Shown here piece by piece: positions 3,470 to 43,853 of a stretch of 64,000 nucleotides of DNA. Source of the stretch: Bacteroidota bacterium (lineage in GTDB: Bacteria; Bacteroidota; Ignavibacteria; Palsa-1295); assembly GCA_021324735.1 (NCBI GenBank), contig JAJPIO010000006.1, positions 15,667 to 79,666 of the forward strand, in the 5' to 3' direction. The translations under genes and the position numbers were made by a program. The notes under the pieces are model-generated. The model was not told where the DNA came from, ran no database searches, and saw nothing but the letters and a program-made list of their open reading frames with translations. Within the stretch, counting starts at the first letter, position 1, and each line of letters starts with the position of its first letter.

Positions 3470-4330
3470 ATGGCTTGGTTTACACGATCGAAGCAGAATA
3501 TCGAGGCGAAACCCGTCGCTGGAGCGGAGGCTTCTTCGCGCCTGCCGGATGGCGTTTGGGCTAAGTGCTCGGAATGCAAAGAGATGCTCTACAAAAAGGT
3601 CATTGAAGAGAATCTCTTTACGTGCCCTAATTGCAATAAGCATTTCCGAATCGGCAGCCGAGAATATTTTTCAATATTGCTTGACAACGGCCTCGAAGAA
3701 GAGATCGCATCGGAACTCCGTCCGGCCGATCCATTATCGTTTGTTGATTCGAAGCCGTACAAGGCGCGTATCGCAGAAGCGGAGCGGAAAACTCATTTGA
3801 AAGAAGCTCTTCGCGTAGGACTCGGTCATATCGAGAGCCGGCCAGTCGCAATGGGTGTCATGGATTTTGCCTATGTTGGTGGCTCCATGGGCGCAGTGAT
3901 CGGAGAAAAATTTTCCCGCGCGATCGATAGGGCGATCGCAGACCGTCGACCATATATTATGGTCTCGAGTTCTGGCGGAGCGCGTATGCAGGAGGCAGCA
4001 ATATCCCTTATGCAGATGGCAAAGACCAGCGCAAAGTTGGCGCAATTTGCCGAAGCGCGACTTCCCTATATCTCCGTTCTCACCGATCCTACGACCGGTG
4101 GTGTTACTGCCAGCTTTGCGATGCTCGGTGATGTGAATATCGCGGAGCCAAAAGCACTTATTGCTTTTGCCGGACCACGTGTTGTTGAGCAAACAATTCG
4201 CAAAAAACTTCCACCAGGATTCCAGCGCTCCGAGTTTTTGCTCGAGCATGGATTCGTCGATATTATCTCGCACCGTAAAGAATTGAAGCGCACCATTGCG
4301 AACGTCCTTTCGCATATGGCCACTGACTGA
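3470..4330 (+). CDS. accD: acetyl-CoA carboxylase carboxyltransferase subunit beta
   Basis: Zn-ribbon CxxC...CxxC (CSECKEMLY...CPNCNKH) plus the carboxyltransferase motif MDFAYVGGSMGAVIGEKF. The start is set at MAWFTRSKQN, which matches the AccD N-terminus MSWIERIK; the track ORF starts 57 nt upstream. Confidence 0.9.
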   Translation: MAWFTRSKQNIEAKPVAGAEASSRLPDGVWAKCSECKEMLYKKVIEENLFTCPNCNKHFRIGSREYFSILLDNGLEEEIASELRPADPLSFVDSKPYKARIAEAERKTHLKEALRVGLGHIESRPVAMGVMDFAYVGGSMGAVIGEKFSRAIDRAIADRRPYIMVSSSGGARMQEAAISLMQMAKTSAKLAQFAEARLPYISVLTDPTTGGVTASFAMLGDVNIAEPKALIAFAGPRVVEQTIRKKLPPGFQRSEFLLEHGFVDIISHRKELKRTIANVLSHMATD

Positions 4331-4339
4331 AGTACCTGT

Positions 4340-5425
4340 ATGCAGCAAAATGAAGCTCGTAGAATCCGAATTATCGGATTCCCTATGGACCTTGGCGTAG
4401 AACGGAAGATATCACCAGATACGGGCACAGACGTTAACCTTAAACGACGTGGTGTCGATATGGGCCCATCCGCACTTCGCATGGCCGGACTTTCGGAGCA
4501 GCTTCGGCATCTGGGGCACACCGTTATCGATATGGAGGTCGGTGCTGCAAATGGTGATAGCGGAAAAAGGCCTGCCCAGATTATTGATATTCCCATCGAG
4601 ACGGCCGAAACATTAGCAGCTCAAGGCAATATCGATCACCGAGATGCGATCGCCGATGCCTGCAACAAGCTATGCCGGACGGTAGAAGACTGTCTGTCTC
4701 ACGGCGAATTTCCTCTGGTGCTTGGCGGCGATCATGCGATGGCGATCGGCACGGTCGCCGGTATTGCGAATCATTGCCGACAAACGAATCAGAAACTCGG
4801 CGTATTATGGGTGGATGCCCACGCTGATATTAATACCCCGCAGTCATCAAAATCGCAGAATGTCCATGGTATGCCGGTAGCGGTGATCATAGGGCAAGGC
4901 GATTTGCGGCTGACCTCTGTCGGCGGCAATTTTCCGAAGCTCGATCCCGAATGTCTTGTCTATATAGGCTTGCGAGATGTGGAGCATGAATCCGAATGGC
5001 AAAAGAATCATCCGGGACAAAAGCCGAACACCGAAGAAATGAGCGAGGTAGACCGTCTGAAGGCCCTTGGTCTGCATGGTGATTCAGAGACCCGATCCTT
5101 TACCATGTCTAAAGTGGATGAGTTAGGCATCAGCGAAGTAATTAGCCGCTCACTCGAACACATGCAAAAGATCGGCGTGACATATTTGCACGTTAGCTTC
5201 GACCTCGATTCTGTCGACCCGATATATGCCCCGGGTGTTGGTACACCGGTACCGGGCGGGTTGACCAATCGTGAAGCGCATTCTATTATGGAGGCCATTG
5301 CTCTTTCCCCCATCTTCAAATCTCTTGAAATTGCGGAGGTCAATCCCATTCTCGATGAGCGAAATAAAAGTGCGGAATTAGCGGTCGATCTCATTGCCAG
5401 CAGTATGGGAAAGAAAATTCTTTAG
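4340..5425 (+). CDS. rocF: arginase-family hydrolase (arginase/agmatinase-like)
   Basis: All three ureohydrolase metal-binding motifs are present: GGDHAMAIG, DAHADINTP and SFDLDSVDP. 361 aa with an insertion relative to canonical arginase. Confidence 0.78.
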   Translation: MQQNEARRIRIIGFPMDLGVERKISPDTGTDVNLKRRGVDMGPSALRMAGLSEQLRHLGHTVIDMEVGAANGDSGKRPAQIIDIPIETAETLAAQGNIDHRDAIADACNKLCRTVEDCLSHGEFPLVLGGDHAMAIGTVAGIANHCRQTNQKLGVLWVDAHADINTPQSSKSQNVHGMPVAVIIGQGDLRLTSVGGNFPKLDPECLVYIGLRDVEHESEWQKNHPGQKPNTEEMSEVDRLKALGLHGDSETRSFTMSKVDELGISEVISRSLEHMQKIGVTYLHVSFDLDSVDPIYAPGVGTPVPGGLTNREAHSIMEAIALSPIFKSLEIAEVNPILDERNKSAELAVDLIASSMGKKIL

Positions 5426-6300: not shown

Positions 6301-6690
6301 ATGAAGCGAATTTTGTTCAAATCGAAGGTCCACCGCGCCACTGTGACGCAGGCGGAGCTTTACTATGAAGGCTCGCTTACGTTGGACGCCGATCTCATGC
6401 GTGCAGCCGATATGCTGCCCTACGAAAAAGTAGCTATCGTCAACAATAACAATGGCGAGCGCTTCGAGACCTATCTGATCGAAGGACCCGCCGGCTCCGG
6501 TGTCGTATGCCTGAATGGTGCTGCCGCTCGTAAGGGAGCTGTAGGCGATGAGATCATCATCATTACCTATGGCGAGTACGAGGATGCTGAAGAACTTCGG
6601 TACCATCAGCCGACCATAGTTCAAGTCGATAAGTCTAATAAAGTTAAGAAGATAACGAACGCAACTCCAGCGTTTTCTCTGGCCAATTAA
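6301..6690 (+). CDS. panD: aspartate 1-decarboxylase
   Basis: MKRILFKSKVHRATVTQAELYYEGSLTLD matches the PanD N-terminus, including the Gly-Ser self-cleavage site context (YEGS). The start is taken at the internal MKRILF. Confidence 0.85.
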   Translation: MKRILFKSKVHRATVTQAELYYEGSLTLDADLMRAADMLPYEKVAIVNNNNGERFETYLIEGPAGSGVVCLNGAAARKGAVGDEIIIITYGEYEDAEELRYHQPTIVQVDKSNKVKKITNATPAFSLAN

Positions 6691-6714
6691 GCTACTAAGA
6701 CCTCTCTTCCAAGC

Positions 6715-7488
6715 TTGCCGACCGATACCACTACTCGCCCGCTCGCCGCAGTTATTATGGCTGCAGGACAAGGCAAGCGGATGCAAGATCCATCCAAAGC
6801 TAAGGTTCTTTATACCGTAGGCAGTGTGCCGATGGTAGGGCATGTTGTTCACCTCTGCAAGGAGATCGGCGCCGAGCCGGTCGTTTGCATTATTGGCTTC
6901 GGCCGCGAGCAGGTTTCCGCATATCTCTCCTCCACCTTCACGAATGTCAGGACCGCCGTTCAGGAGGAGCAGTTGGGTACCGCTCATGCCGTTCAACAGG
7001 CTCGTCGCGCGCTCGAGGGATTCGACGGTGATGTGCTCATTCTCTCCGGTGATGTTCCCCTTCTCACGAAAGCCACCACCGAGAAGCTCATTGGCGAACA
7101 CCGTGCGAAGCAAGCGATCGCTACCGTACTTGCCGTGAAGTTGGATAACCCAACCGGCTATGGCCGCATCATTCGCTCGGCAGGTGGAAGCCTGGAGAAG
7201 ATCGTGGAGGAGCGAGATGCAACCGATGAGGAGCGTAAAGTACAGGAGATTAATACCGGTATTTACATCTTCGATTCCGGCGTGCTCTTTTCCGTGCTCG
7301 ACCGCATCGGCAAGAAAAATGCACAGGGCGAATACTACCTGACCGACGCCTTCGAACTTCTCATTGCGCAGTTCGGAGTTGGCTCCATTGCCGTGGTTAC
7401 GACGCAAGACCCAATTGAAGCGAGCGGCGTAAATACGAAAGACCAACTCGCGGCCCTCGAAGCCGAATATCTTCGCCGGGCTCACTGA
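6715..7488 (+). CDS. sugar-1-phosphate nucleotidyltransferase (GlmU N-terminal uridylyltransferase-like domain only)
   Basis: AVIMAAGQGKRM (the G-x-G-x-R-M NTP-transferase signature), TAHAV, LSGDVPLL and EYYLTD mirror the GlmU pyrophosphorylase domain. There are no left-handed beta-helix hexapeptide repeats; the ORF stops at 257 aa. Confidence 0.7.
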   Translation: MPTDTTTRPLAAVIMAAGQGKRMQDPSKAKVLYTVGSVPMVGHVVHLCKEIGAEPVVCIIGFGREQVSAYLSSTFTNVRTAVQEEQLGTAHAVQQARRALEGFDGDVLILSGDVPLLTKATTEKLIGEHRAKQAIATVLAVKLDNPTGYGRIIRSAGGSLEKIVEERDATDEERKVQEINTGIYIFDSGVLFSVLDRIGKKNAQGEYYLTDAFELLIAQFGVGSIAVVTTQDPIEASGVNTKDQLAALEAEYLRRAH

Positions 7489-7614
7489 TCGCACAAACGG
7501 CGAATTTCTCTCTCGTCCCACGCTCGCGATTCCCTCACACCCAAAGGCACACTTCTTGGCCTTTACGACCGATCGTAAACTTTAGGCAACTGTAGGTTAA
7601 CTCTGAATCATTTT

Positions 7615-8142
7615 ATGAAGCATAATTTATCGCACTACTTTCGTACGCCTCTCTTCTTCAGCACTTCACTGTTACTGGTTCTTGCAATGGCCGGCTGTTC
7701 CGCCACCACATCCCCTACCGGGACGACGGAGACGGAAAGCAGTATGGTCGCAATGGTCAATGGGTTCGATTGGTCATCGACCGTGATCCCTCCTGATATT
7801 TCGGGTGGTGCATCGGCTACAATGGATGGCACGGGCGCTCTCACGGTAACCGGTACCTCGACCTCACATGGCTCGATCGCGCTCGTACTCCTTCACCCGC
7901 ACGTGGGTCTGGACACGCTGGGCATAGGAAGTTCAGGCTCGTATATTTCAGAGGACAACCACGCATACCTCACCGTGGGCCAGAACCAAGGCATCGTGAA
8001 TCTGACCACGTTCGATCCGGTCCATCACCTGGCGAGCGGGACATTCTACTTTACGGCTCAACGCACCGATTCGGCCGCCAATCCCGCCACCACACAAGTG
8101 ACGAACGGCTCCTTTTTCAATGTGGAGTGGAAGGCGCAGTAG
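7615..8142 (+). CDS. hypothetical lipoprotein
   Basis: Signal peptide with lipobox (LLLVLAMAGCS). Thr/Ser/Gly-rich, 175 aa. Confidence 0.6.
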   Translation: MKHNLSHYFRTPLFFSTSLLLVLAMAGCSATTSPTGTTETESSMVAMVNGFDWSSTVIPPDISGGASATMDGTGALTVTGTSTSHGSIALVLLHPHVGLDTLGIGSSGSYISEDNHAYLTVGQNQGIVNLTTFDPVHHLASGTFYFTAQRTDSAANPATTQVTNGSFFNVEWKAQ

Positions 8143-22321: not shown

Positions 22322-23596
22322 ATGGAAGTTCGCTCGCCCGAAAGTATTGCACGGCATTCGGTTATTAGTAATCTGCTAAGCGCAGCAGTTGTCGTCTCTG
22401 CGCTTGGATATTTCGTCGACATCTACGATCTGGTCCTGTTCTCGATCATTCGAGTACCCAGCCTTCAATCGCTCGGACTGAAAGGCTCGGCAATACTGGA
22501 CACGGGCATTTATCTTCTCAATGTACAGATGGCCGGCATGCTGCTCGGCGGAATTGCATGGGGAATTCTCGGTGATAAGAAAGGCCGGCTTTCCGTACTC
22601 TTCGGCTCTATCCTCCTTTACTCGCTTGCCAATATCGCCAATGGATTTGTACAGACCGTCGAACAATATGCGGTACTGCGTTTCATTGCCGGGCTGGGTC
22701 TTGCCGGCGAACTTGGTGCGGGTGTTACCCTCGTCTCGGAATTACTGCCTAAAGAATATCGTGGTTACGGCACTGCGCTCATCACTTCAGTGGGCGTTGC
22801 CGGCGCTACCTTAGCATGGTTCATCGCTCAGGAGTTTGGATGGCAAACCTGTTTTTGGATCGGTGGCGGATTGGGCTTAGTGCTTCTCATTTTAAGGATC
22901 GGCATTTTGGAGTCTGGCATGTTCGTCAAGGTAGCGGCAACGACGGTTCGTCGCGGCAGTTTCTTCTCGCTCTTCACCAGCCGCTCTCGATTCACAAAAT
23001 ATCTGCGGTGTATCTTGATCGGACTGCCTACCTGGTACCTCGTCGGTATCCTGATGACATTAGCTCCGGAGCTTTCCAAAGCTCTCGATGTGACTGGAAA
23101 TATTTCCGGTGGTGAATCGATCTTCTGGTTCTATATTGGGCTTACGATTGGCAATCTTGCGAGCGGCGTTATCAGCCAACTCTTAAAAAGCCGTCGAAAA
23201 GTGGTGCTGATCTTCCTCGTAAGTACTGCGACATTTGTTGGGGCTTACTTTTTACAGCATGGCACAACACCTGAAATATTCTACAGTATATGTCTCTTCA
23301 TGGGCATTTCGAGCGGATACTGGGCGCTCTTCGTAACGATCGCCGCCGAACAATTTGGCACGAACGTTCGCGCCACGGTCGCGACGACGGTACCCAATTT
23401 TGTACGTGGCGCGCTTGTACCAATAGCGCTCGTCTTTCAGTGGATGAAGGGCATTCTGGCCTCAAGTTACTCTTCCAGTCAAGCACTTATTTATTCGGGA
23501 GTGATCGTGGGAGTTGTTACGATCGGCATTGCACTCTTTGCACTATCCGGTTTGCACGAAACGTTCGGGAAGGACCTGGATTACGTCGAGACCTAA
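22322..23596 (+). CDS. MFS transporter (12-TM), paralog 1
   Basis: 424 aa, hydrophobic throughout, with MFS-like loop motifs (GILGDKKGRLSV). Nearly identical N-terminal half to the next gene. Confidence 0.85.
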   Translation: MEVRSPESIARHSVISNLLSAAVVVSALGYFVDIYDLVLFSIIRVPSLQSLGLKGSAILDTGIYLLNVQMAGMLLGGIAWGILGDKKGRLSVLFGSILLYSLANIANGFVQTVEQYAVLRFIAGLGLAGELGAGVTLVSELLPKEYRGYGTALITSVGVAGATLAWFIAQEFGWQTCFWIGGGLGLVLLILRIGILESGMFVKVAATTVRRGSFFSLFTSRSRFTKYLRCILIGLPTWYLVGILMTLAPELSKALDVTGNISGGESIFWFYIGLTIGNLASGVISQLLKSRRKVVLIFLVSTATFVGAYFLQHGTTPEIFYSICLFMGISSGYWALFVTIAAEQFGTNVRATVATTVPNFVRGALVPIALVFQWMKGILASSYSSSQALIYSGVIVGVVTIGIALFALSGLHETFGKDLDYVET

Positions 23597-23691
23597 ATTC
23601 GCCCATCCTATTCACCATTCATCACTCACCGTTCACCATTCATCAATAATCATTCTCTCCTGGTTCGTTTGTATTTTTGTAGTGTCTTCCT

Positions 23692-24954
23692 ATGGATATT
23701 CTCGCTCCCGAACGACCTAATATTCGCGCTCTCTTTAGCGCCGCGGTTATCGTCTCTTCCCTCGGATATTTCGTCGATATTTACGATCTCGTTCTCTTTT
23801 CGATCATTAGGGTGCCGAGCCTCAAGTCGATCGGCCTTTCGGGAAGCGCGCTTTTAGATACCGGTATCTATCTCCTCAATGTACAAATGGCTGGCATGCT
23901 GCTTGGCGGGATCGCATGGGGCATCCTCGGGGATAAGAAGGGGCGTCTCTCCGTCCTCTTCGGTTCGATCGTACTGTATTCCCTTGCCAACATTGCCAAC
24001 GGCTTTGTGCAATCGGTCGGGCAATATGCCGTGCTTCGATTCATTGCTGGTATCGGACTGGCTGGTGAATTAGGCGCCGGAGTAACGCTCGTTAGCGAAC
24101 TTCTGCCAAAAGAAGTCCGTGGTTATGGTACCGCGATGATAACGGCGGTGGGTATGGCAGGTGCGCTGCTCGCCTGGACGATCGCCAATAACTTTGGATG
24201 GCAAACGTGCTTCTTTATTGGCGGTGCGCTTGGACTATTATTGCTGACACTTCGCTTTGGCGTCCTCGAATCCAGCATGTTTGAAAAGATGGCGTCGATC
24301 GATGTGACTCGTGGTCGGATCATTAGTCTCTTCACCGATCGTCGGCGCTTCGGAAAGTACATCCGCTGTATTCTCATCGGTTTGCCGACTTGGTATCTCA
24401 TCGGTATACTCATGACCTTTGCGCCTGAATTTGGCAAAGCACTCGGAGTAACAGGCGCTGTAACGGGTGGCGAAGCGATCTTCTGGTATTACCTCGGGCA
24501 GGTCTTTGGCGATATAACGAGCGGCACGTTAAGCCAGGTGATGAGGAGTCGTAAAAAAGTACTTCTCATGTTCCTGGTCGCTGTCGGTGTATTCGCGACG
24601 GTGTACTTTATGCAGGGTGCAACAACACCGCAAATGTTCTACGCTATCTGCGCGATACTCGGCGTCTCCAATGGATATTGGGCCCTCTTCGTAACCATAG
24701 CGGCGGAGCAGTTCGGCACGAACCTAAGGAATACCGTCGCAACCACGGTGCCGAACTTTGTCCGTGGCGCGCTCGTCCCGATCAATCTTCTCTTTCTGTG
24801 GCTTCGTGAGACAGTGTTTGCGAATCTGCCGGGTAATCAGGCATTGATCTATGCCGGTGTCATCGTTGGTAGCTTGACGCTAATCATCGCAATCCTTTCG
24901 CTTTCGGGCCTGGATGAGACCTTCGGCAAAGAGCTGGATTATATGGAATTGTAG
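23692..24954 (+). CDS. MFS transporter (12-TM), paralog 2 (tandem duplicate)
   Basis: 420 aa, roughly 75-80% identical to 22322-23596 (e.g. GYFVDIYDLVLFSIIRVPSL...GILGDKKGRLSVLFGSI). Confidence 0.85.
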   Translation: MDILAPERPNIRALFSAAVIVSSLGYFVDIYDLVLFSIIRVPSLKSIGLSGSALLDTGIYLLNVQMAGMLLGGIAWGILGDKKGRLSVLFGSIVLYSLANIANGFVQSVGQYAVLRFIAGIGLAGELGAGVTLVSELLPKEVRGYGTAMITAVGMAGALLAWTIANNFGWQTCFFIGGALGLLLLTLRFGVLESSMFEKMASIDVTRGRIISLFTDRRRFGKYIRCILIGLPTWYLIGILMTFAPEFGKALGVTGAVTGGEAIFWYYLGQVFGDITSGTLSQVMRSRKKVLLMFLVAVGVFATVYFMQGATTPQMFYAICAILGVSNGYWALFVTIAAEQFGTNLRNTVATTVPNFVRGALVPINLLFLWLRETVFANLPGNQALIYAGVIVGSLTLIIAILSLSGLDETFGKELDYMEL

Positions 24955-36573: not shown

Positions 36574-36954
36574 ATGGATAAACACTTCGACGACAAAAAG
36601 CTGACCTATGATATTATTGGTTGCGCTATGCGTGTCCACACCGAACTTGGTTGCGGATTTCAGGAAGTGATCTATCAACGTGCATTGGAAATCGAACTGC
36701 AAGAAGCTGGAATGGAATACCGTCGCGAATTTGAAATGCCAATTCGCTACAAAGGACAATTCATTGGCGGGCGACGAGTTGACTTTCTTATTAGCGGCAT
36801 ATCTGTCGAACTCAAAGCGCTCACTCAATTGGAGGACGTCCACTTAGCTCAAGCAATGAACTACCTTGAAGCGTACGAACTCAAGACCGGCTTACTCATT
36901 AACTTCGGTGCAAAGAAGCTGCAGTTCCATCGATTGACAAACACGCATATCTGA
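36574..36954 (+). CDS. GxxExxY protein (PD-(D/E)XK nuclease-fold, PDDEXK_3 family)
   Basis: 126 aa. KLTYDIIGCAMRVHTELGCGFQEVIYQRALEIELQEAGMEYRREFEMPIRYKG...VDFLISGISVELKAL matches the GxxExxY family layout, including the ExK-like core. Flanked on both sides by the GTCTGAAC repeats. Confidence 0.8.
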   Translation: MDKHFDDKKLTYDIIGCAMRVHTELGCGFQEVIYQRALEIELQEAGMEYRREFEMPIRYKGQFIGGRRVDFLISGISVELKALTQLEDVHLAQAMNYLEAYELKTGLLINFGAKKLQFHRLTNTHI

Positions 36955-38644: not shown

Positions 38645-38953
38645 ATGAACCTAAAACCATTGCACGATCGCCTGATCGTCCGTCCGGCAAAGCCAGAGGA
38701 AGTGACGAAGGGCGGAATCATCCTTCCGGATACGGCGAAAGAGAAGCCAGTCCAGGGCGAAGTGCTCGCTTGCGGACCGGGCAAGTACGACGAAAGCGGC
38801 AAACTCACCCCGATCGGCGTGAAAGTCGGCGATAAAGTCCTCTATGGTAAGTACTCCGGCACCGAGATCTCTCTCGATGGCGAGGACGTGCTCATCATGC
38901 GCGAAAGCGATGTCTTCGCGATCGTAGAGACGAACGGCAAAGCCAAGAAGTAA
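38645..38953 (+). CDS. groES: co-chaperonin GroES
   Basis: [46 protein letters not shown], 102 aa. Confidence 0.95.
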
Positions 38954-39067: not shown

Positions 39068-40723
<1,656 letters not shown>

Positions 40724-40731
40724 TATCTACA

Positions 40732-40763
40732 AGGCCCGCCGCACGGCGGGCCTTTATATTTTT
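40732..40763 (+). terminator. groESL intrinsic terminator
   Basis: GGCCCGCC-gcac-GGCGGGCC is a perfect 8-bp GC stem followed by TTTATATTTTT. Confidence 0.8.
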
Positions 40764-40776
40764 GTGGAGGTTTGGT

Positions 40777-41676
40777 ATGGCATCAATGGTTCTGGCATTA
40801 CAACAGGCCGCACGAGATCCATCGTATCCAGTCTCAAGGCTTCTTCGAGATGCCGCTACACTCGCATTCAAGGTGCGTATCTCGGGCATGGATGACTTTT
40901 TTGATGGGGAAAGGAATGGCTATGAGGGTAAAGAATTGCCTGATTACAGATGGCTCTCAGGTACTCCTGTCGCGCAAACAACCTTCGGGCGGTGGGTACC
41001 TCTGACCCTGGTTGGTTTCGATCAGGAGGGCTTCTACAAAAGGCCTCTCGTCCATTCCGTATCGGAAATAGAAGAAATGATTGCGCGTGCAGGAGGCACT
41101 ACGCTTGTAATGCCATACCCGAACAAAATTGTTGAAATGTTCCGACCACAAGATCCGGATCTTGGTAGTGCAGGGATTCAAGTCGGAATTCATCAATTCA
41201 AAGGCGTGCTTGAACACGTTAGGGATATGATTCTCAACTTCGCGCTTTCCCTTGAAAAGAAAGGACGCGATGTAAATGAGGAGACGATTGAAATCATAAA
41301 ACGAGATGATCTCAATATTTCAAAAAGCGAGGTCAAAGAAGCAACGACTGTAATAAATATTGAAAATCTTCAAGGGATTGCAGGCACTGTGGCTTCTTCA
41401 TCGGTACGGTTCGGCGATTTTTCTTCAATTTTAAACGTACTGAAAAATGCAAACGTCCCGCAGTCCGAGCGCAATGAACTTGAAAATATTGTGGATGAAG
41501 CTACGACGTTGCCCTCAGACGAACGGAAAGGACTTGCATCGCGCGCAACAGCCTGGCTTGATAGAAACAAATCCTTCCTTTTGACCGCCGGCACTGAGGT
41601 TACGAAGCTACTGCAACGAGCTTCACGTTCTCTAAGCCACACTGATGGACACTGTAGCCGTTCGTATGCTCGATAA
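40777..41676 (+). CDS. AbiTii-like abortive-infection domain protein
   Basis: The start ATG has GGAGG 6 nt upstream. The N-terminus MASMVLALQQAARDPSYPVSRLLRDAATLAFKV...DGERNGYEGKELPDYRWLSG follows the AbiTii N-domain pattern (LILELQ...ELNGY..PeYR.L.G). Region GC is lower than in flanking groEL. Confidence 0.55.
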   Translation: MASMVLALQQAARDPSYPVSRLLRDAATLAFKVRISGMDDFFDGERNGYEGKELPDYRWLSGTPVAQTTFGRWVPLTLVGFDQEGFYKRPLVHSVSEIEEMIARAGGTTLVMPYPNKIVEMFRPQDPDLGSAGIQVGIHQFKGVLEHVRDMILNFALSLEKKGRDVNEETIEIIKRDDLNISKSEVKEATTVINIENLQGIAGTVASSSVRFGDFSSILNVLKNANVPQSERNELENIVDEATTLPSDERKGLASRATAWLDRNKSFLLTAGTEVTKLLQRASRSLSHTDGHCSRSYAR

Positions 41677-42127
41677 TGCAAACGGCCCATATTCATGGGT
41701 TCCTTTGGCATCGTTAGTCGTTGCAGCTCTTGCATCGATCGCGGCCATAATCAGCCCGATTATGTCAAGGAGAACTACGAGACAGCAGATTATCTCTACA
41801 AGCCGCCAAGATTGGCTTAACAAAGTGCGGCTCAAAGTTGCGAAGCACCTCCAACTTACAACGATACTTCACGGGAAGACCTCCCTGTCAAGGCCGTACC
41901 GAGTGCGACAACTAGAAGCACTGGTACTTCTAGAATATCAATTAGAATTACTTTTAAATACGAGCGAGGCGAATCAAGCGAGCATACTCCTTCATCTCCG
42001 CGAATTACGCGATATATGCATTGACAAGCAGCGACTCGCTCAATATGTGCTGTATCGTGATCGTTTTACGAAGGAGTTCGCCTCCTTCCGTGATGGTCTG
42101 TGGAAAGAGATTAAGAAAGGGAGATAG
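41645..42127 (+). CDS. small single-pass membrane protein (candidate partner of the AbiTii-like gene)
   Basis: 160 aa with one TM helix (WVPLASLVVAALASIAAIISPIM), then a charged coiled-coil-like region. The ATG overlaps the upstream gene by 32 nt. Confidence 0.45.
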   Translation: MDTVAVRMLDNANGPYSWVPLASLVVAALASIAAIISPIMSRRTTRQQIISTSRQDWLNKVRLKVAKHLQLTTILHGKTSLSRPYRVRQLEALVLLEYQLELLLNTSEANQASILLHLRELRDICIDKQRLAQYVLYRDRFTKEFASFRDGLWKEIKKGR

Positions 42128-42235
42128 CTTCGATCACAAGCGCAGAGCGGTGAAGTACTCGCAGCCCAGCATGAAGCGAAACGGAATGCTGGGTGGCAAA
42201 GCAAAATAGTGTCGAAGCCCTGAAAGGGCGTTGTA

Positions 42236-42345
42236 CTCCGCCCCTTCAGGGCTAATATTTTTCACGCGTTGCTAACCCAGGGCTATCGTCCCTCGATCAG
42301 GTCGAGGGCAGGCTCCGGGCTGCGAGCACTGCGTCACTTCGTGAC
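42236..42345. repeat. GC-rich palindromic repeat element (copy L) 5' of the hypothetical ORF
   Basis: CCCCTTCAGGGCTAATATTTTTCACGCGTTGCTAACCCAGGGCTA...GGGCTGCGAGCACTGCGTCACTTCGTGACT, with an internal hairpin CCCTCGA-tcagg-TCGAGGG. A partial inverted copy lies at 42150-42178. Confidence 0.6.
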
Positions 42346-42433
42346 TTGCAGCGGGATTTTTGAGGTAGGCCGGCTGTTCTGGTTTACGCATACCTTCAGA
42401 AAATAGAAACAGGCTTTGAGCCGCACAGACCCC

Positions 42434-42919
42434 ATGTCCTCTCGCATCGAAATAACACCGCAGGGACTTGCACTCTCGATCTACTCGGAGATGATCGACG
42501 TCGATTCGTATATCGAGGAGATTGAGACCGAGCTTAATAACGACGAGCGCGAAAGGTTTCTCCGTGTGCTCCGAACTTACTACCTTGCCAGCATTTCTAT
42601 AGCTATCGAAATTGTTGCGAAAACAGAATCCGGCATGAGCGCGGTGCTGACGGAGATAATTGGCCTCGAGCAAGAACGCGGTATAGGTCTGACACTTCTG
42701 GAGATCCGAACAGTATTCTCCGATATGGTCGAGCTTCTCACTGACCAGGCACAGCCACTGGAGTGGGGACTTGCCTGGGGAAGCCGTCATAATTTCTCCA
42801 CCTTGAATATCGAGCAGCTTCTGGTAATTTCCGTTTGGGCTGAGACGACCTTCCAGGCTTCACTCGAATTTCTATCTCGGTTCAAAATTCTCGCTGGCTT
42901 CCCCGCATCTCGAAATTGA
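42434..42919 (+). CDS. acidic hypothetical protein bracketed by palindromic direct repeats
   Basis: ORF of 161 aa from the first ATG (the track ORF begins at a TTG at 42416). No recognisable domain. The antisense ORF 42272-42790 has a Cys/His/Arg-rich junk-like composition. Confidence 0.45.
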   Translation: MSSRIEITPQGLALSIYSEMIDVDSYIEEIETELNNDERERFLRVLRTYYLASISIAIEIVAKTESGMSAVLTEIIGLEQERGIGLTLLEIRTVFSDMVELLTDQAQPLEWGLAWGSRHNFSTLNIEQLLVISVWAETTFQASLEFLSRFKILAGFPASRN

Positions 42920-42941
42920 TCTTCAATGGCGGCGTACCCCG

Positions 42942-43028
42942 CACATCGCCCCCAGGGCTAATCTTTTTCAAACATTGCTAACCCAGGGCTAACGCCCTGG
43001 GCTGCGAGTACTTCGTCACTCCGTGACT
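42942..43028. repeat. GC-rich palindromic repeat element (copy R) 3' of the hypothetical ORF
   Basis: CCCCCAGGGCTAATCTTTTTCAAACATTGCTAACCCAGGGCTAACGCCCTGGGCTGCGAGTACTTCGTCACTCCGTGACT is about 90% identical to copy L, minus a 31-bp internal segment. It contains the perfect hairpin CCCAGGGC-taac-GCCCTGGG. Confidence 0.6.
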
Positions 43029-43172
43029 AAACTGACACTGTTATCTCCCTAATCCAATAATCTCCCCAAATCCACGTTCAGACGACTTGCTAATTCAGGC
43101 AATCATCTCTCCGAGGATCCACCGCAGCTAATCGGTTCGCGACACAAAACACCTCCCGGTTGTTTATAGTAT

Positions 43173-43853
43173 ATGCCACGCTCATTGCGCACTCGCGCTT
43201 TCGCAGGTCTCACTCAATTTGTTATTGCACTTGCGGTACTCATCTTCGGTGCCGCGTGGACCTTCGATTATTGGCAGGGCTGGATTTTCCTCTTCGCCTT
43301 CTTTACCATCGTCACTTACATCACGTTTCACTTTCTTAAATCCGATCCGGGACTCATCGAACGGCGACTTAAAGCAGGCTCGGCGGCTGAAAAGGAGAAG
43401 AGCCAGAAGATCATACAGGCTTTTGCTAATCTCTTCTTTCTTGCTATCATAGTATTTCCGGTGCTCGACCATCGATTCGGTTGGTCCGACGTCACGGCGA
43501 TCGAGTCGCTCATCGGCGATCTATTGGTTGTCGTTGGTCTCTTGATCGTGTTTCTCGTCTTTCGGGAGAATAGCTATACGTCGGCAATTATTGAAGTCGG
43601 GAGCGAGCAAAAGGTTATTACGACAGGACCATATCGGCTCGTCCGTCATCCGATGTATTCGGGGGCTTTGCTGATGCTGCTTGGCGTCCCGCTTGCGCAC
43701 GGTTCGCTGTGGGGATTACTCTTTTGGCTACCGATGCTCGTGGTGATCGTACTGCGCTTAAAAGATGAGGAGAGATTTTTAAAAGCGAACTTACAAGGAT
43801 ATCCTGATTACACTACTCAAACTCGCTTTCGGCTTATCCCAGGAATTTACTGA
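43173..43853 (+). CDS. isoprenylcysteine carboxyl methyltransferase (ICMT)/PEMT-family membrane methyltransferase
   Basis: Multi-TM protein, 226 aa. The C-terminal motif LVRHPMYSGALLMLLGVPLAHGS...LKDEERFL is the ICMT-family signature (RHPxY...EE). Confidence 0.75.
   Translation: MPRSLRTRAFAGLTQFVIALAVLIFGAAWTFDYWQGWIFLFAFFTIVTYITFHFLKSDPGLIERRLKAGSAAEKEKSQKIIQAFANLFFLAIIVFPVLDHRFGWSDVTAIESLIGDLLVVVGLLIVFLVFRENSYTSAIIEVGSEQKVITTGPYRLVRHPMYSGALLMLLGVPLAHGSLWGLLFWLPMLVVIVLRLKDEERFLKANLQGYPDYTTQTRFRLIPGIY

Follow-up and report, generated by a model that had tools for sequence, protein, structure and literature searches.

Hairpin repeats downstream of groESL in a Bacteroidota genome are probably REP/REPIN-like elements tied to a Y1 transposase in relatives

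What are the GC-rich palindromic repeats that lie close together downstream of groESL in this genome, and what kind of system do they belong to? The window analysed here, a stretch of 64,000 nucleotides, contains three units in all, which the covariance model R1 places at 42136-42233 on the minus strand and at 42236-42348 and 42944-43030 on the plus strand (units A, B and C, respectively). A fourth unit was not found in the window, either with R1 or with Rfam at E <= 10. Quite likely, all three units represent non-autonomous copies of one REP/REPIN-like DNA element, which in related organisms is tied to a Y1 transposase.

The direct repeats and the two hairpins quoted in the initial annotation are indeed present. 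Unit C, its right-hand copy, is a singlet beyond a 161-aa ORF and opens with a degenerate hairpin H0 whose loop is 2 nt short (CGCCCCCAGGGCT, 42947-42959), followed by a spacer, the hairpin H1 (CCCAGGGC-TAAC-GCCCTGGG, 42982-43001), a linker (CTGCGAGTACTTC, 43002-43014) and the hairpin H2 (GTCAC-TCC-GTGAC, 43015-43027). Unit B, the left-hand copy, runs in the same order from H0 (CGCCCCTTCAGGGCT, 42239-42253) through an AT-rich spacer (42254-42275) to an H1 whose arms (CCCAGGGC, 42276-42283; GCTCCGGG, 42312-42319) enclose the second quoted hairpin, CCCTCGA-TCAGG-TCGAGGG (42290-42308), and from there through a linker (CTGCGAGCACTGC, 42320-42332) to H2 (GTCAC-TTC-GTGAC, 42333-42345). Two direct-repeat blocks connect the copies (42247-42291 with 42953-42997, 45 nt, 87%; 42312-42346 with 42994-43028, 35 nt, 86%), and a 24-nt extra segment in unit B splits them. 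The repeat stands; aligned to the covariance model, B and C share 84% identity over 87 positions, and the earlier figure of about 90% was thus slightly generous. Three sub-motifs each have two exact matches in the window, where shuffled sequence would give 0.00-0.07.

The inverted copy reported at 42150-42178 is inverted as claimed, but it is not partial: it belongs to the complete unit A. Read on the plus strand, unit A carries an H1 of CCCAGCAT (42165-42172), a 13-nt loop and ATGCTGGG (42186-42193), and an H0 of AGCCCTGAAAGGGCG (42216-42230), whereas its H2 is degenerate. The inverted repeats I1, I3 and I4 support it, and its H1 stem covaries with those of units B and C. R1 scores unit A highest of the three (92 bits, E 6e-16, against 74.5 bits, E 2e-12 for unit C and 71.7 bits, E 6e-12 for unit B), with the provisos that these E-values are rough and that the alignment A3 was fitted to the model. 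Units A and B abut as the left and right halves of a head-to-head doublet (42136-42348), which as single-stranded DNA folds into one long hairpin (-58.6 kcal/mol, z = -6.4). Unit B was also supported by a single-stranded DNA fold, and unit C folds with z = -3.45.

Compared across the family, a unit is about 100 nt long and consists of three short hairpins in the order H0, spacer, H1, linker, H2. The H0 consensus (CGCCCYTTCAGGGCT) is followed by an AT-rich spacer of about 24 nt; H1 is an 8-bp stem with a variable top, H2 is a 5-bp stem with a YUC loop, and 13 nt separate the two. In the consensus, CT follows directly after each hairpin and CG precedes it. The layout of an 8-bp and a 5-bp hairpin that covary, joined across a 12-13-nt linker, with CU behind the first and CG...CU around the second, fits the three window units and 51 others. 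In the hairpin alignments 96.6-97.7% of cells are paired, and 11 of 20 pairs among 22 units, or 17 of 20 among 54 units, have changed on both sides. The observed covariation was reached by none of 500 shuffles, and controls in which the stems were slid drop to 25-55% paired.

The simplest account of so compact an arrangement would be that a stretch was duplicated locally and belongs to no wider family, a reading that the initial annotation had itself allowed for. The repeat is confined to one locus of the window, but units lie on 21 contigs of 12 Kapaibacterium/Ignavibacteria/'Bacteroidetes' metagenome-assembled genomes (MAGs) and, in many metagenomes, on either side of transposase genes, so this reading can practically be dismissed. 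The contigs come from a search of one genome per species with a 22-nt linker-plus-H2 pattern, which returned 35 matching stretches, of which 21 are full units; the remaining 14 fall inside genes, a number close to the chance estimate. A single MAG has up to four unit-bearing contigs. The sole viral match lies inside a phage gene and is a chance match, and a phage origin was rejected. R1 finds 54 units in the window and 25 further loci, with a median nearest-neighbour identity of 82%. They are mostly paired head-to-head and inverted, such doublets occurring in 13 loci including the window, and a rough ORF survey places them between ORFs. This bears out the initial reading as REP/BIME-like elements: the family is dispersed, intergenic and palindromic, and its layout is that of REP, BIME or REPIN elements.

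A link to a RAYT or IS200-like transposase had also been suggested. No Y1 transposase or integrase occurs among the scanned ORFs of the window, but in relatives the link holds. In one locus, L028, a Y1_Tnp gene (PF01797, 2.5e-25) at 7090-7551 lies between units at 6991-7089 (-) and 7559-7658 (+), and L012, L013 and L031 likewise have a Y1 gene between two inverted units. To these are added L040, L041, L043, L044, L046, L047 and L049, loci found by protein only, where inverted units also surround the gene. The H0 ends of both inverted units face the start and stop codons of the transposase gene. Furthermore, 80 additional homologous transposase loci were ascertained by protein alone and then scored for units: in 52 of them a unit lies no more than 150 nt from the gene, and 73 of the 81 adjacent units turn the same end toward it. 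Upstream-adjacent units number 40 on the minus strand and 4 on the plus strand, downstream-adjacent units 33 on the plus and 4 on the minus, and the median gaps between gene and unit are 17 and 14 nt upstream and downstream, respectively. Unit density is 2.14 per kb near the gene and 0.20 per kb farther off, a roughly tenfold difference, and this tight, oriented association extends across several phyla. In 24 of the 80 loci there is no unit at E <= 0.01 by R1, a model trained on Kapaibacterium-type units only, and these loci may reflect either limited model sensitivity or true absence. At the gene-proximal position the H0 15-mer is identical letter for letter between loci with transposases of only 40-50% identity.

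What kind of enzyme is this? It is a protein of about 150 aa of the HUH/Y1 type, IS200 superfamily, with the motifs DHVH, WQxGYG and Y(I/L)xxQEEHH. Across 12 sequences of 146-162 aa, DHVH, WQ and Y(I/L)xxQE(E/Q)HH are invariant, and the tail TFQEEF...GVEYDERYxW is conserved. Subclass 1.2 of TnpAY1 is recognised by DH[IV]H, WQ, Y---Q--HH, a length of about 148 aa and a conserved C-terminal tail (Quentin et al., 2018, PMC6006769). Judged from its sequence, the transposase matches this subclass by the Y---Q--HH signature and is not a canonical RAYT. Supporting this, it passes the NCBI IS200 model NF033573 (66 bits, cut-off 55) and fails the NCBI RAYT model NF047646 (25.6 and 24.6 bits, cut-off 80). 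Thus, of the suggested link, the association with a Y1 enzyme stands in relatives, and the identification of that enzyme as a canonical RAYT does not. The name 'RayT' given to some JGI clusters is a generic COG label and was excluded from the evidence; cluster names were also of little taxonomic use.

A passing score with the IS200/IS605 model invites a different interpretation, in which the units would form the ends of an ordinary, still active insertion sequence of the IS200 type and the doublets would be MITE-like internal deletions of it, and not parts of a domesticated, single-copy RAYT-like system. The closest solved relative of the transposase is indeed that of ISHp608, decayed gene copies occur in L013 (frameshifted), L004 (split) and L034 (partial), and a doublet is exactly a transposase gene locus minus the gene. 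A Y1_Tnp domain, hairpin ends, gene-less derivatives and a probable single-strand mechanism are all features shared with IS200/IS605 elements and their MITE-like derivatives. However, an IS200/IS605 element ends in two subterminal hairpins that differ from each other, lie on the same strand and come without terminal inverted repeats, whereas here the ends are long inverted repeats, inverted copies of one unit of about 100 nt, and there is no tnpB. In the Kapaibacterium-type loci, 54 units stand against 6 transposase genes or remnants; each transposase protein cluster was found on few contigs, and gene copy number is apparently low; and the gene neighbours are constant across L044, L045 and L046, which are related but distinct genomes. 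Subclass 1.2 enzymes are described as low in copy number and without IS properties, IS ends or REPs (Quentin et al., 2018, PMC6006769). An active insertion sequence with MITEs is therefore fairly unlikely.

The resemblance to REP/REPIN-RAYT systems, such as E. coli REP/BIME with TnpA-REP or the REPINs of Pseudomonas, is closer. Both have short, palindromic, intergenic, multi-copy repeats, mostly in inverted doublets whose fold is a long hairpin, units that far outnumber the genes, and a Y1/HUH gene bracketed by inverted copies, as in a REPtron. Unlike a REP, which is one palindrome of 20-40 nt, the unit described here has three separate hairpins, and the GT[AG]G foot of canonical REPs is missing, with neither GTAG nor GTGG in the unit consensus. 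The enzyme is of class 1 (subclass 1.2) and not a class 2 RAYT with its YIxxNP motif, and the hosts are Kapaibacterium/Ignavibacteria, Planctomycetota and Calditrichota and not Proteobacteria. Two further systems form moderately abundant repeat families, in dimers or clusters, with examples that include Acidobacteria and Planctomycetes: the TIRtrons with their TIRYTs (Di Nocera et al., 2013, PMC3733652) and the 'atypical secondary structures' of class 3 TnpAY1 (PMC6006769). Unlike the transposase here, the TIRYTs mostly belong to subclass 2.1, have HTH tails and go with GGGGWSAS repeats, and class 3 enzymes have NHVH and YV..EQ motifs and a CnGA foot, where the present enzyme has DHVH, WQ and YIxNQEEHH.

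With IS608 TnpA and E. coli TnpA-REP as analogues, one would expect the enzyme to bind the unit hairpins in single-stranded DNA at the replication fork, and it might cut beside them, thereby copying or maintaining the doublets; a candidate cleavage site is the CT that invariably follows each hairpin. No presence/absence polymorphism or target duplication of units was seen, so it is by this analogy that I infer mobilisation of the units by the transposase. The subclass 1.2 enzymes would thus gain a probable substrate and, should this be confirmed, class 2 enzymes and GTAG REPs would no longer mark the limits of REPIN-RAYT-like partnerships, which would reach into Kapaibacterium/Ignavibacteria, Planctomycetota and Calditrichota. 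With an enzyme of 150 aa and a 15-nt hairpin that stays constant while the enzyme diverges to 40% identity, it would also make a compact test system.

How do the three units sit among the genes of the window? They lie in two adjacent gaps between genes, within a variable region downstream of groESL. The neighbouring gene that had been called Abi-like is AbiTii (40762-41676; PF18864, 8.4e-27), so that label was well chosen. Its end is overlapped by ORF160 (41645-42127, plus strand), which is taken from the ORF list as context only and has no family match, and unit A begins 8 nt past the ORF160 stop codon. Between units B and C lies ORF161 (161 aa, 42434-42919, plus strand), a neighbour of the element and not a demonstrated member of it. 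It has no Pfam or NCBIfam match, and a search of 5.8 billion protein clusters returned only itself; three other assemblies of the same organism carry it in the identical arrangement. A minus-strand frame, ORF172 (42272-42790), whose 3' end (its C-terminal codons) runs into unit B, was judged spurious.

The initial annotation saw in this segment a cassette-like unit, and one can imagine B and C as the boundaries of a mobile gene cassette, either integron-like or a passenger of the IS200/IS605 type. The two point the same way and resemble each other more than they resemble any other unit, ORF161 sits neatly between them, and gene content downstream of groEL differs in L006, the sole relative with the same groEL (91% aa identity), which has unrelated genes there. 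However, the identity of B and C is close to the family median, ORF161 has no homologue elsewhere and hence no second location, and the arrangement is identical on all recovered ORF161 contigs. The comparison with L006 gave no alignable orthologous junction, and neither an empty site nor a second location was found for the B-ORF161-C segment. Two same-orientation units in adjacent intergenic gaps are in any case expected from a REP family, and with no integrase or transposase among the scanned ORFs a cassette is very unlikely; that claim of the annotation did not hold up.

In an integron, the R'' (RYYYAAC) and R' (GTTRRRY) cores of attC close one imperfect hairpin of 57-141 nt, with an integrase nearby. 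The units resemble attC sites as structured repeats separating small ORFs, but they have three short perfect hairpins in place of a single imperfect one with extrahelical bases, they form inverted doublets, and the core pair is missing. The attC reading was thus rejected, in agreement with the initial annotation.

A related proposal is that B and C, in the same orientation around ORF161, play the part of left and right end in an IS200/IS605-type element, with the Y1 enzyme excising the ORF and moving it as a single-stranded passenger. This is distinctly unlikely, but if true, it would give a REP-type system a route to mobilising host genes within this variable islet downstream of groESL.

Rfam already lists part of the unit as family RF01687 (Acido-Lenti-1), a point missing from the initial annotation. 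The model matches unit C at 42982-43028 with 38.1 bits, against a gathering score of 37, and other Rfam families and riboswitches (neisseria_FSE, mir-671 and the like) fall far under threshold and reflect palindromes. Units A and B stay below the RF01687 threshold because their H1 loops are enlarged, in unit B by the 24-nt insertion, and the only other match in the window is one of 14.5 bits at 42218-42253, on the pair of H0 hairpins at the A/B junction. The Acido-Lenti-1 motif corresponds to H1, linker and H2, that is, to the 3' half of a unit. Common to both are these two hairpins with the 12-13-nt linker, a conserved CU after H1 and CG...CU around H2, and in the published RF01687 flanks, too, a hairpin resembling H0 lies upstream and there are arrays, either tandem or alternating. 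The RF01687 model, in contrast, is limited to 46 nt at the 3' end and to a single strand, and it describes an sRNA gene of Acidobacteria and Lentisphaerae, whereas the units are longer, often have an H1 top of 13 nt or more, include a third hairpin and come from other hosts.

Could the repeats then be paralogous genes for a trans-acting structured small RNA? The match of unit C is above the Rfam threshold, stem covariation is strong, H2 loops are UUCG-like, and Weinberg et al. (2010, PMC2864571) rated the motif as likely RNA. However, the units occur in both orientations, in abutting inverted doublets and mirror-wise around a transposase gene, and the conserved unit, third hairpin included, is twice the length of the Rfam model. 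G-U pairs account for only 3 of 436 paired cells in the unit alignment, and the published RF01687 seed has 38 A.C mismatches against 8 G.U pairs on the annotated strand, both of which point to DNA-type pairing. A consensus scan found no promoter-like or terminator-like site inside the units; the one promoter-like match nearby, at 43032-43061, starts just past unit C. An sRNA gene is thus unlikely, and REP-type repeats may be transcribed as parts of mRNAs.

The terminator scan recovers the groEL terminator (40731-40754) and none at the units, where the central hairpin of the doublet is followed only by a weak ATATTTTT. With no consensus hairpin and T tract at the units, their reading as intrinsic terminators was rejected; the window units may nevertheless act locally as transcript-end structures.

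RF01687 itself is probably a marker of DNA repeats, corresponding to the 3' half of a REP-like unit, and not of sRNA genes. An 'sRNA' without an assigned function since 2010 would thus gain a probable identity, and in genome annotation RF01687 matches should not be counted as sRNA genes. The gene context in the 2010 supplement contains no transposase annotation. In the first 20 protein-ascertained loci (49 kb), the Rfam model gives 12 matches above the gathering score, and in L044 and L046 such matches adjoin the transposase gene.

The window carries three copies of a palindromic repeat of about 100 nt, each of which folds by itself into three hairpins (H0, H1 and H2): unit A at 42136-42233 (-), unit B at 42236-42348 (+) and unit C at 42944-43030 (+). 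They score 92, 71.7 and 74.5 bits, respectively, with R1, a covariance model of the full unit that was trained on one lineage only and whose E-values are rough, and an R1 search of the whole 64 kb found no further unit. A repeat finder and a reading of 41700-43500 recovered the direct repeats described in the initial annotation as two blocks, 42247-42291 versus 42953-42997 (87%) and 42312-42346 versus 42994-43028 (86%), with 24 extra bases between the blocks of the left copy; three sub-motifs occur exactly twice each in the window against a chance expectation of 0.00-0.07. Both hairpins quoted there are also found in the sequence, but what was considered a 'partial' inverted copy is actually the complete unit A.

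In unit C, H1 is CCCAGGGC-TAAC-GCCCTGGG, followed by a 13-nt linker and H2, GTCAC-TCC-GTGAC. Unit B has the same parts plus a 24-nt insertion in the H1 loop; in unit A, a covarying H1 stem, CCCAGCAT...ATGCTGGG, closes a loop of 13 nt. The H0 15-mer CGCCCYTTCAGGGCT lies at 42239-42253 with an inverted copy at 42216-42230. Units A and B adjoin in head-to-head orientation, and folding this doublet as single-stranded DNA gives a single long hairpin (-58.6 kcal/mol, z = -6.4). The insertion in unit B (42290-42311) shares a core, GATCAGGTCGAGGG, with two loci compared on other contigs, L017 (5991-6004) and L034 (2168-2181), the latter site being a much larger nested H1, and may represent a second small palindromic module lodging in the H1 loop.

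A scan for the pattern GGGCTGCGAGYACTKCNNCNCT in contigs from one genome per species matched 35 stretches, 21 of which contain full units, on 12 Kapaibacterium, Ignavibacteria and 'Bacteroidetes' MAGs with up to four unit-bearing contigs each. The other 14 are matches within genes of unrelated bacteria, approximately the number estimated by chance. In the consensus, about 24 nt of AT-rich spacer separate H0 (CGCCCTTTCAGGGCT) from H1 (ACCCAGGGTTCCGCTTCGCTCCACCCTGGG), which carries an apical insertion that varies; a linker (CTGCGAGTACTKCG) then leads to H2 (YCSCTYCGSGRC), which is followed by TA. Among 22 units, 97.7% of cells are paired and 11 of 20 pairs have changes on both sides, values reached by none of 500 shuffles; in 54 units aligned by, and hence fitted to, the model, the figures are 96.6% and 17 of 20. 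G-U pairs are nearly lacking in the stems. The majority of units form head-to-head inverted doublets with their H0 ends face to face across a gap of 2-70 nt (L004, L006, L010, L014, L018, L019, L022, L024, L025, L026, L028, L033 and the window), which is the layout of REPINs.

At L028, units at 6991-7089 (-) and 7559-7658 (+) precisely bracket a 153-aa ORF (7090-7551) encoding a Y1_Tnp protein (PF01797, 2.5e-25). At L012, a Y1 gene (4031-4483) is likewise enclosed by units at 3928-4026 (-) and 4490-4588 (+); L031 has the same layout, as does L013 with a frameshifted gene, and remnants of the gene are present in L004 and L034. Because these four complete layouts had been found via the repeat, loci were also sampled by protein alone. 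Clear adjacent units, several exceeding Rfam's own threshold, occur at seven of eight loci encoding homologues of 45-53% identity (the named sources are Phycisphaerae, Gemmataceae and Calditrichaeota MAGs), and the eighth, L048, has weak unit matches only. A metagenome scan by protein alignment then yielded 80 further loci, which were searched with R1: in 52, a unit lies 150 nt or less from the Y1 gene, and 23 of 74 have units on both sides. Upstream-adjacent units are on the minus strand in 40 cases versus 4 on the plus strand, whereas downstream-adjacent units are on the plus strand in 33 versus 4 on the minus, with median gaps of 17 and 14 nt, respectively. Unit density is 2.14 per kb within 250 nt of the gene and 0.20 per kb farther away. 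The Rfam model alone gave 12 above-threshold matches in the first 20 loci. Furthermore, CGCCCYTTCAGGGCT is letter-for-letter constant at the gene-proximal position while the proteins are just 40-50% identical, making it unusually well conserved for flanking non-coding DNA; identical copies stand beside Y1 genes at L049 (2470-2484 and 2961-2975), L104, L089, L067, L086 and others. Together with the REPIN-type doublets, this oriented association in relatives supports the REP/RAYT reading of the initial annotation. The window itself has no Y1 gene or remnant, and the gene for the enzyme of its units must lie beyond the 64 kb, unless it has been lost.

Several features of these loci were also recorded. 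Damaged transposase copies (frameshifted, split or truncated) with intact flanking units lie at L013 4114-4468, L004 1768-2212 and L034 525-650. The L028 gene and its two units sit between a weakly Mrr/restriction-endonuclease-like ORF (6432-7235) and an N6/N4 DNA methylase-like fragment (7585-7932); the former passes through unit L028c and is thus probably overcalled or disrupted. In a Phycisphaerae/Gemmataceae pair, the Y1 gene adjoins an isoleucyl-tRNA-synthetase-like gene (tRNA-synt_1/DUF5915) on opposite sides (L040, 3665 onward; L042, 1-815). Three distinct assemblies (L044, L045, L046) share the Y1 neighbours GD_AH dehydratase, ATP-grasp_3 and Pkinase, and L046 has an additional TIR_2/FGE-sulfatase gene inserted next to the unit cluster.

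What kind of transposase is this? The motifs DHVH, WQxGYGxFS and Y(I/L)xxQE(E/Q)HH are common to twelve sequences, whose C-terminal tails are also conserved. The protein passed the NCBI IS200 model (66 bits versus 55) and failed the RAYT model (25.6 bits versus 80), and the closest solved structure is the ISHp608 transposase. These motifs and a length of about 150 aa match TnpAY1 subclass 1.2 ( Quentin et al., 2018, PMC6006769). The arrangement of a transposase between inverted repeats already has a precedent in TIRtrons ( Di Nocera et al., 2013, PMC3733652), tyrosine transposases with long inverted repeat flanks, one such repeated family being from Koribacter.

The sole above-threshold Rfam match in the window, RF01687 (Acido-Lenti-1 RNA; 42982-43028, 38.1 bits, gathering score 37), spans H1, the linker and H2 of unit C; the 13-nt H1 loop of unit A and the insertion of unit B explain why the model misses both. 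Acido-Lenti-1 was first described from 89 examples, most from Lentisphaera araneosa, frequently in tandem or alternating arrays, and the remainder from Koribacter, Rhodopirellula, Geobacter and metagenomes ( Weinberg et al., 2010, PMC2864571). An extra upstream H2-type hairpin is visible in the flanks of these published sequences. On the annotated strand, the published seed stems (supplementary file 183) contain 38 A.C mismatches, mostly at one H1 position in Lentisphaera, and only 8 G.U pairs. As A.C mismatches become G.U wobbles on the opposite strand, the strand assignment is doubtful, and this excess, along with the few G-U pairs of the units, is more consistent with palindromic DNA, or with the other strand, than with an annotated-strand RNA. 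I found no published link between Acido-Lenti-1 and a transposase. This transposase subclass, believed to have no repeat partner, probably has one in an Rfam 'sRNA' family.

The unit family, its structure, its doublets and its oriented association with the Y1 gene are established. By analogy with IS608 TnpA and E. coli TnpA-REP, whose established single-strand mechanisms are named in PMC6006769, the transposase would recognise the unit hairpins in single-stranded DNA and cut beside them, thereby copying or maintaining the doublets. CT directly follows every hairpin and is a candidate cleavage site. No mobility event was seen among the loci examined.

The suggestion that the repeats delimit a cassette-like unit is not supported. 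ORF161 (42434-42919), between units B and C, matches only itself among 5.8 billion clusters, every contig that contains it has the same layout, and there is no sign that the segment moves. Units B and C are mutually nearest relatives (84%; the family median nearest-neighbour identity is 82%), and no empty site could be aligned in the comparison with L006, from a Candidatus Kapaibacterium MAG whose groEL protein is 91% identical to that of the window. This groEL match makes the source organism a probable member of that group. The surroundings are ordinary chromosome (accD, arginase, panC, argS, groES/groEL, cysteine/methionine enzymes, recQ, folP and T9SS-tailed proteins), and no integrase or transposase was found in the window. 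Here groES (38645-38953) and groEL (39080-40723; terminator 40731-40754) are followed by AbiTii (40762-41676), the overlapping 160-aa ORF160 (41645-42127), units A and B, ORF161, unit C and a PEMT/ICMT-type methyltransferase (43173-43853). In L006 (4093-5968), three unrelated ORFs instead occupy this place downstream of groEL, and a unit cluster comes next. Gene content here thus varies, and the stretch after groESL (40762-42127 in the window) resembles a variable islet, possibly one for defence. Elsewhere in the window, a histidine kinase and a hydrolase flank a stand-alone PD-(D/E)XK nuclease family gene (36574-36954; PDDEXK_3, 2.5e-36), and two neighbouring similar MFS transporter genes of 424 and 420 aa (22322-24954) are located where the AT skew of the window is most strongly negative (-0.19).
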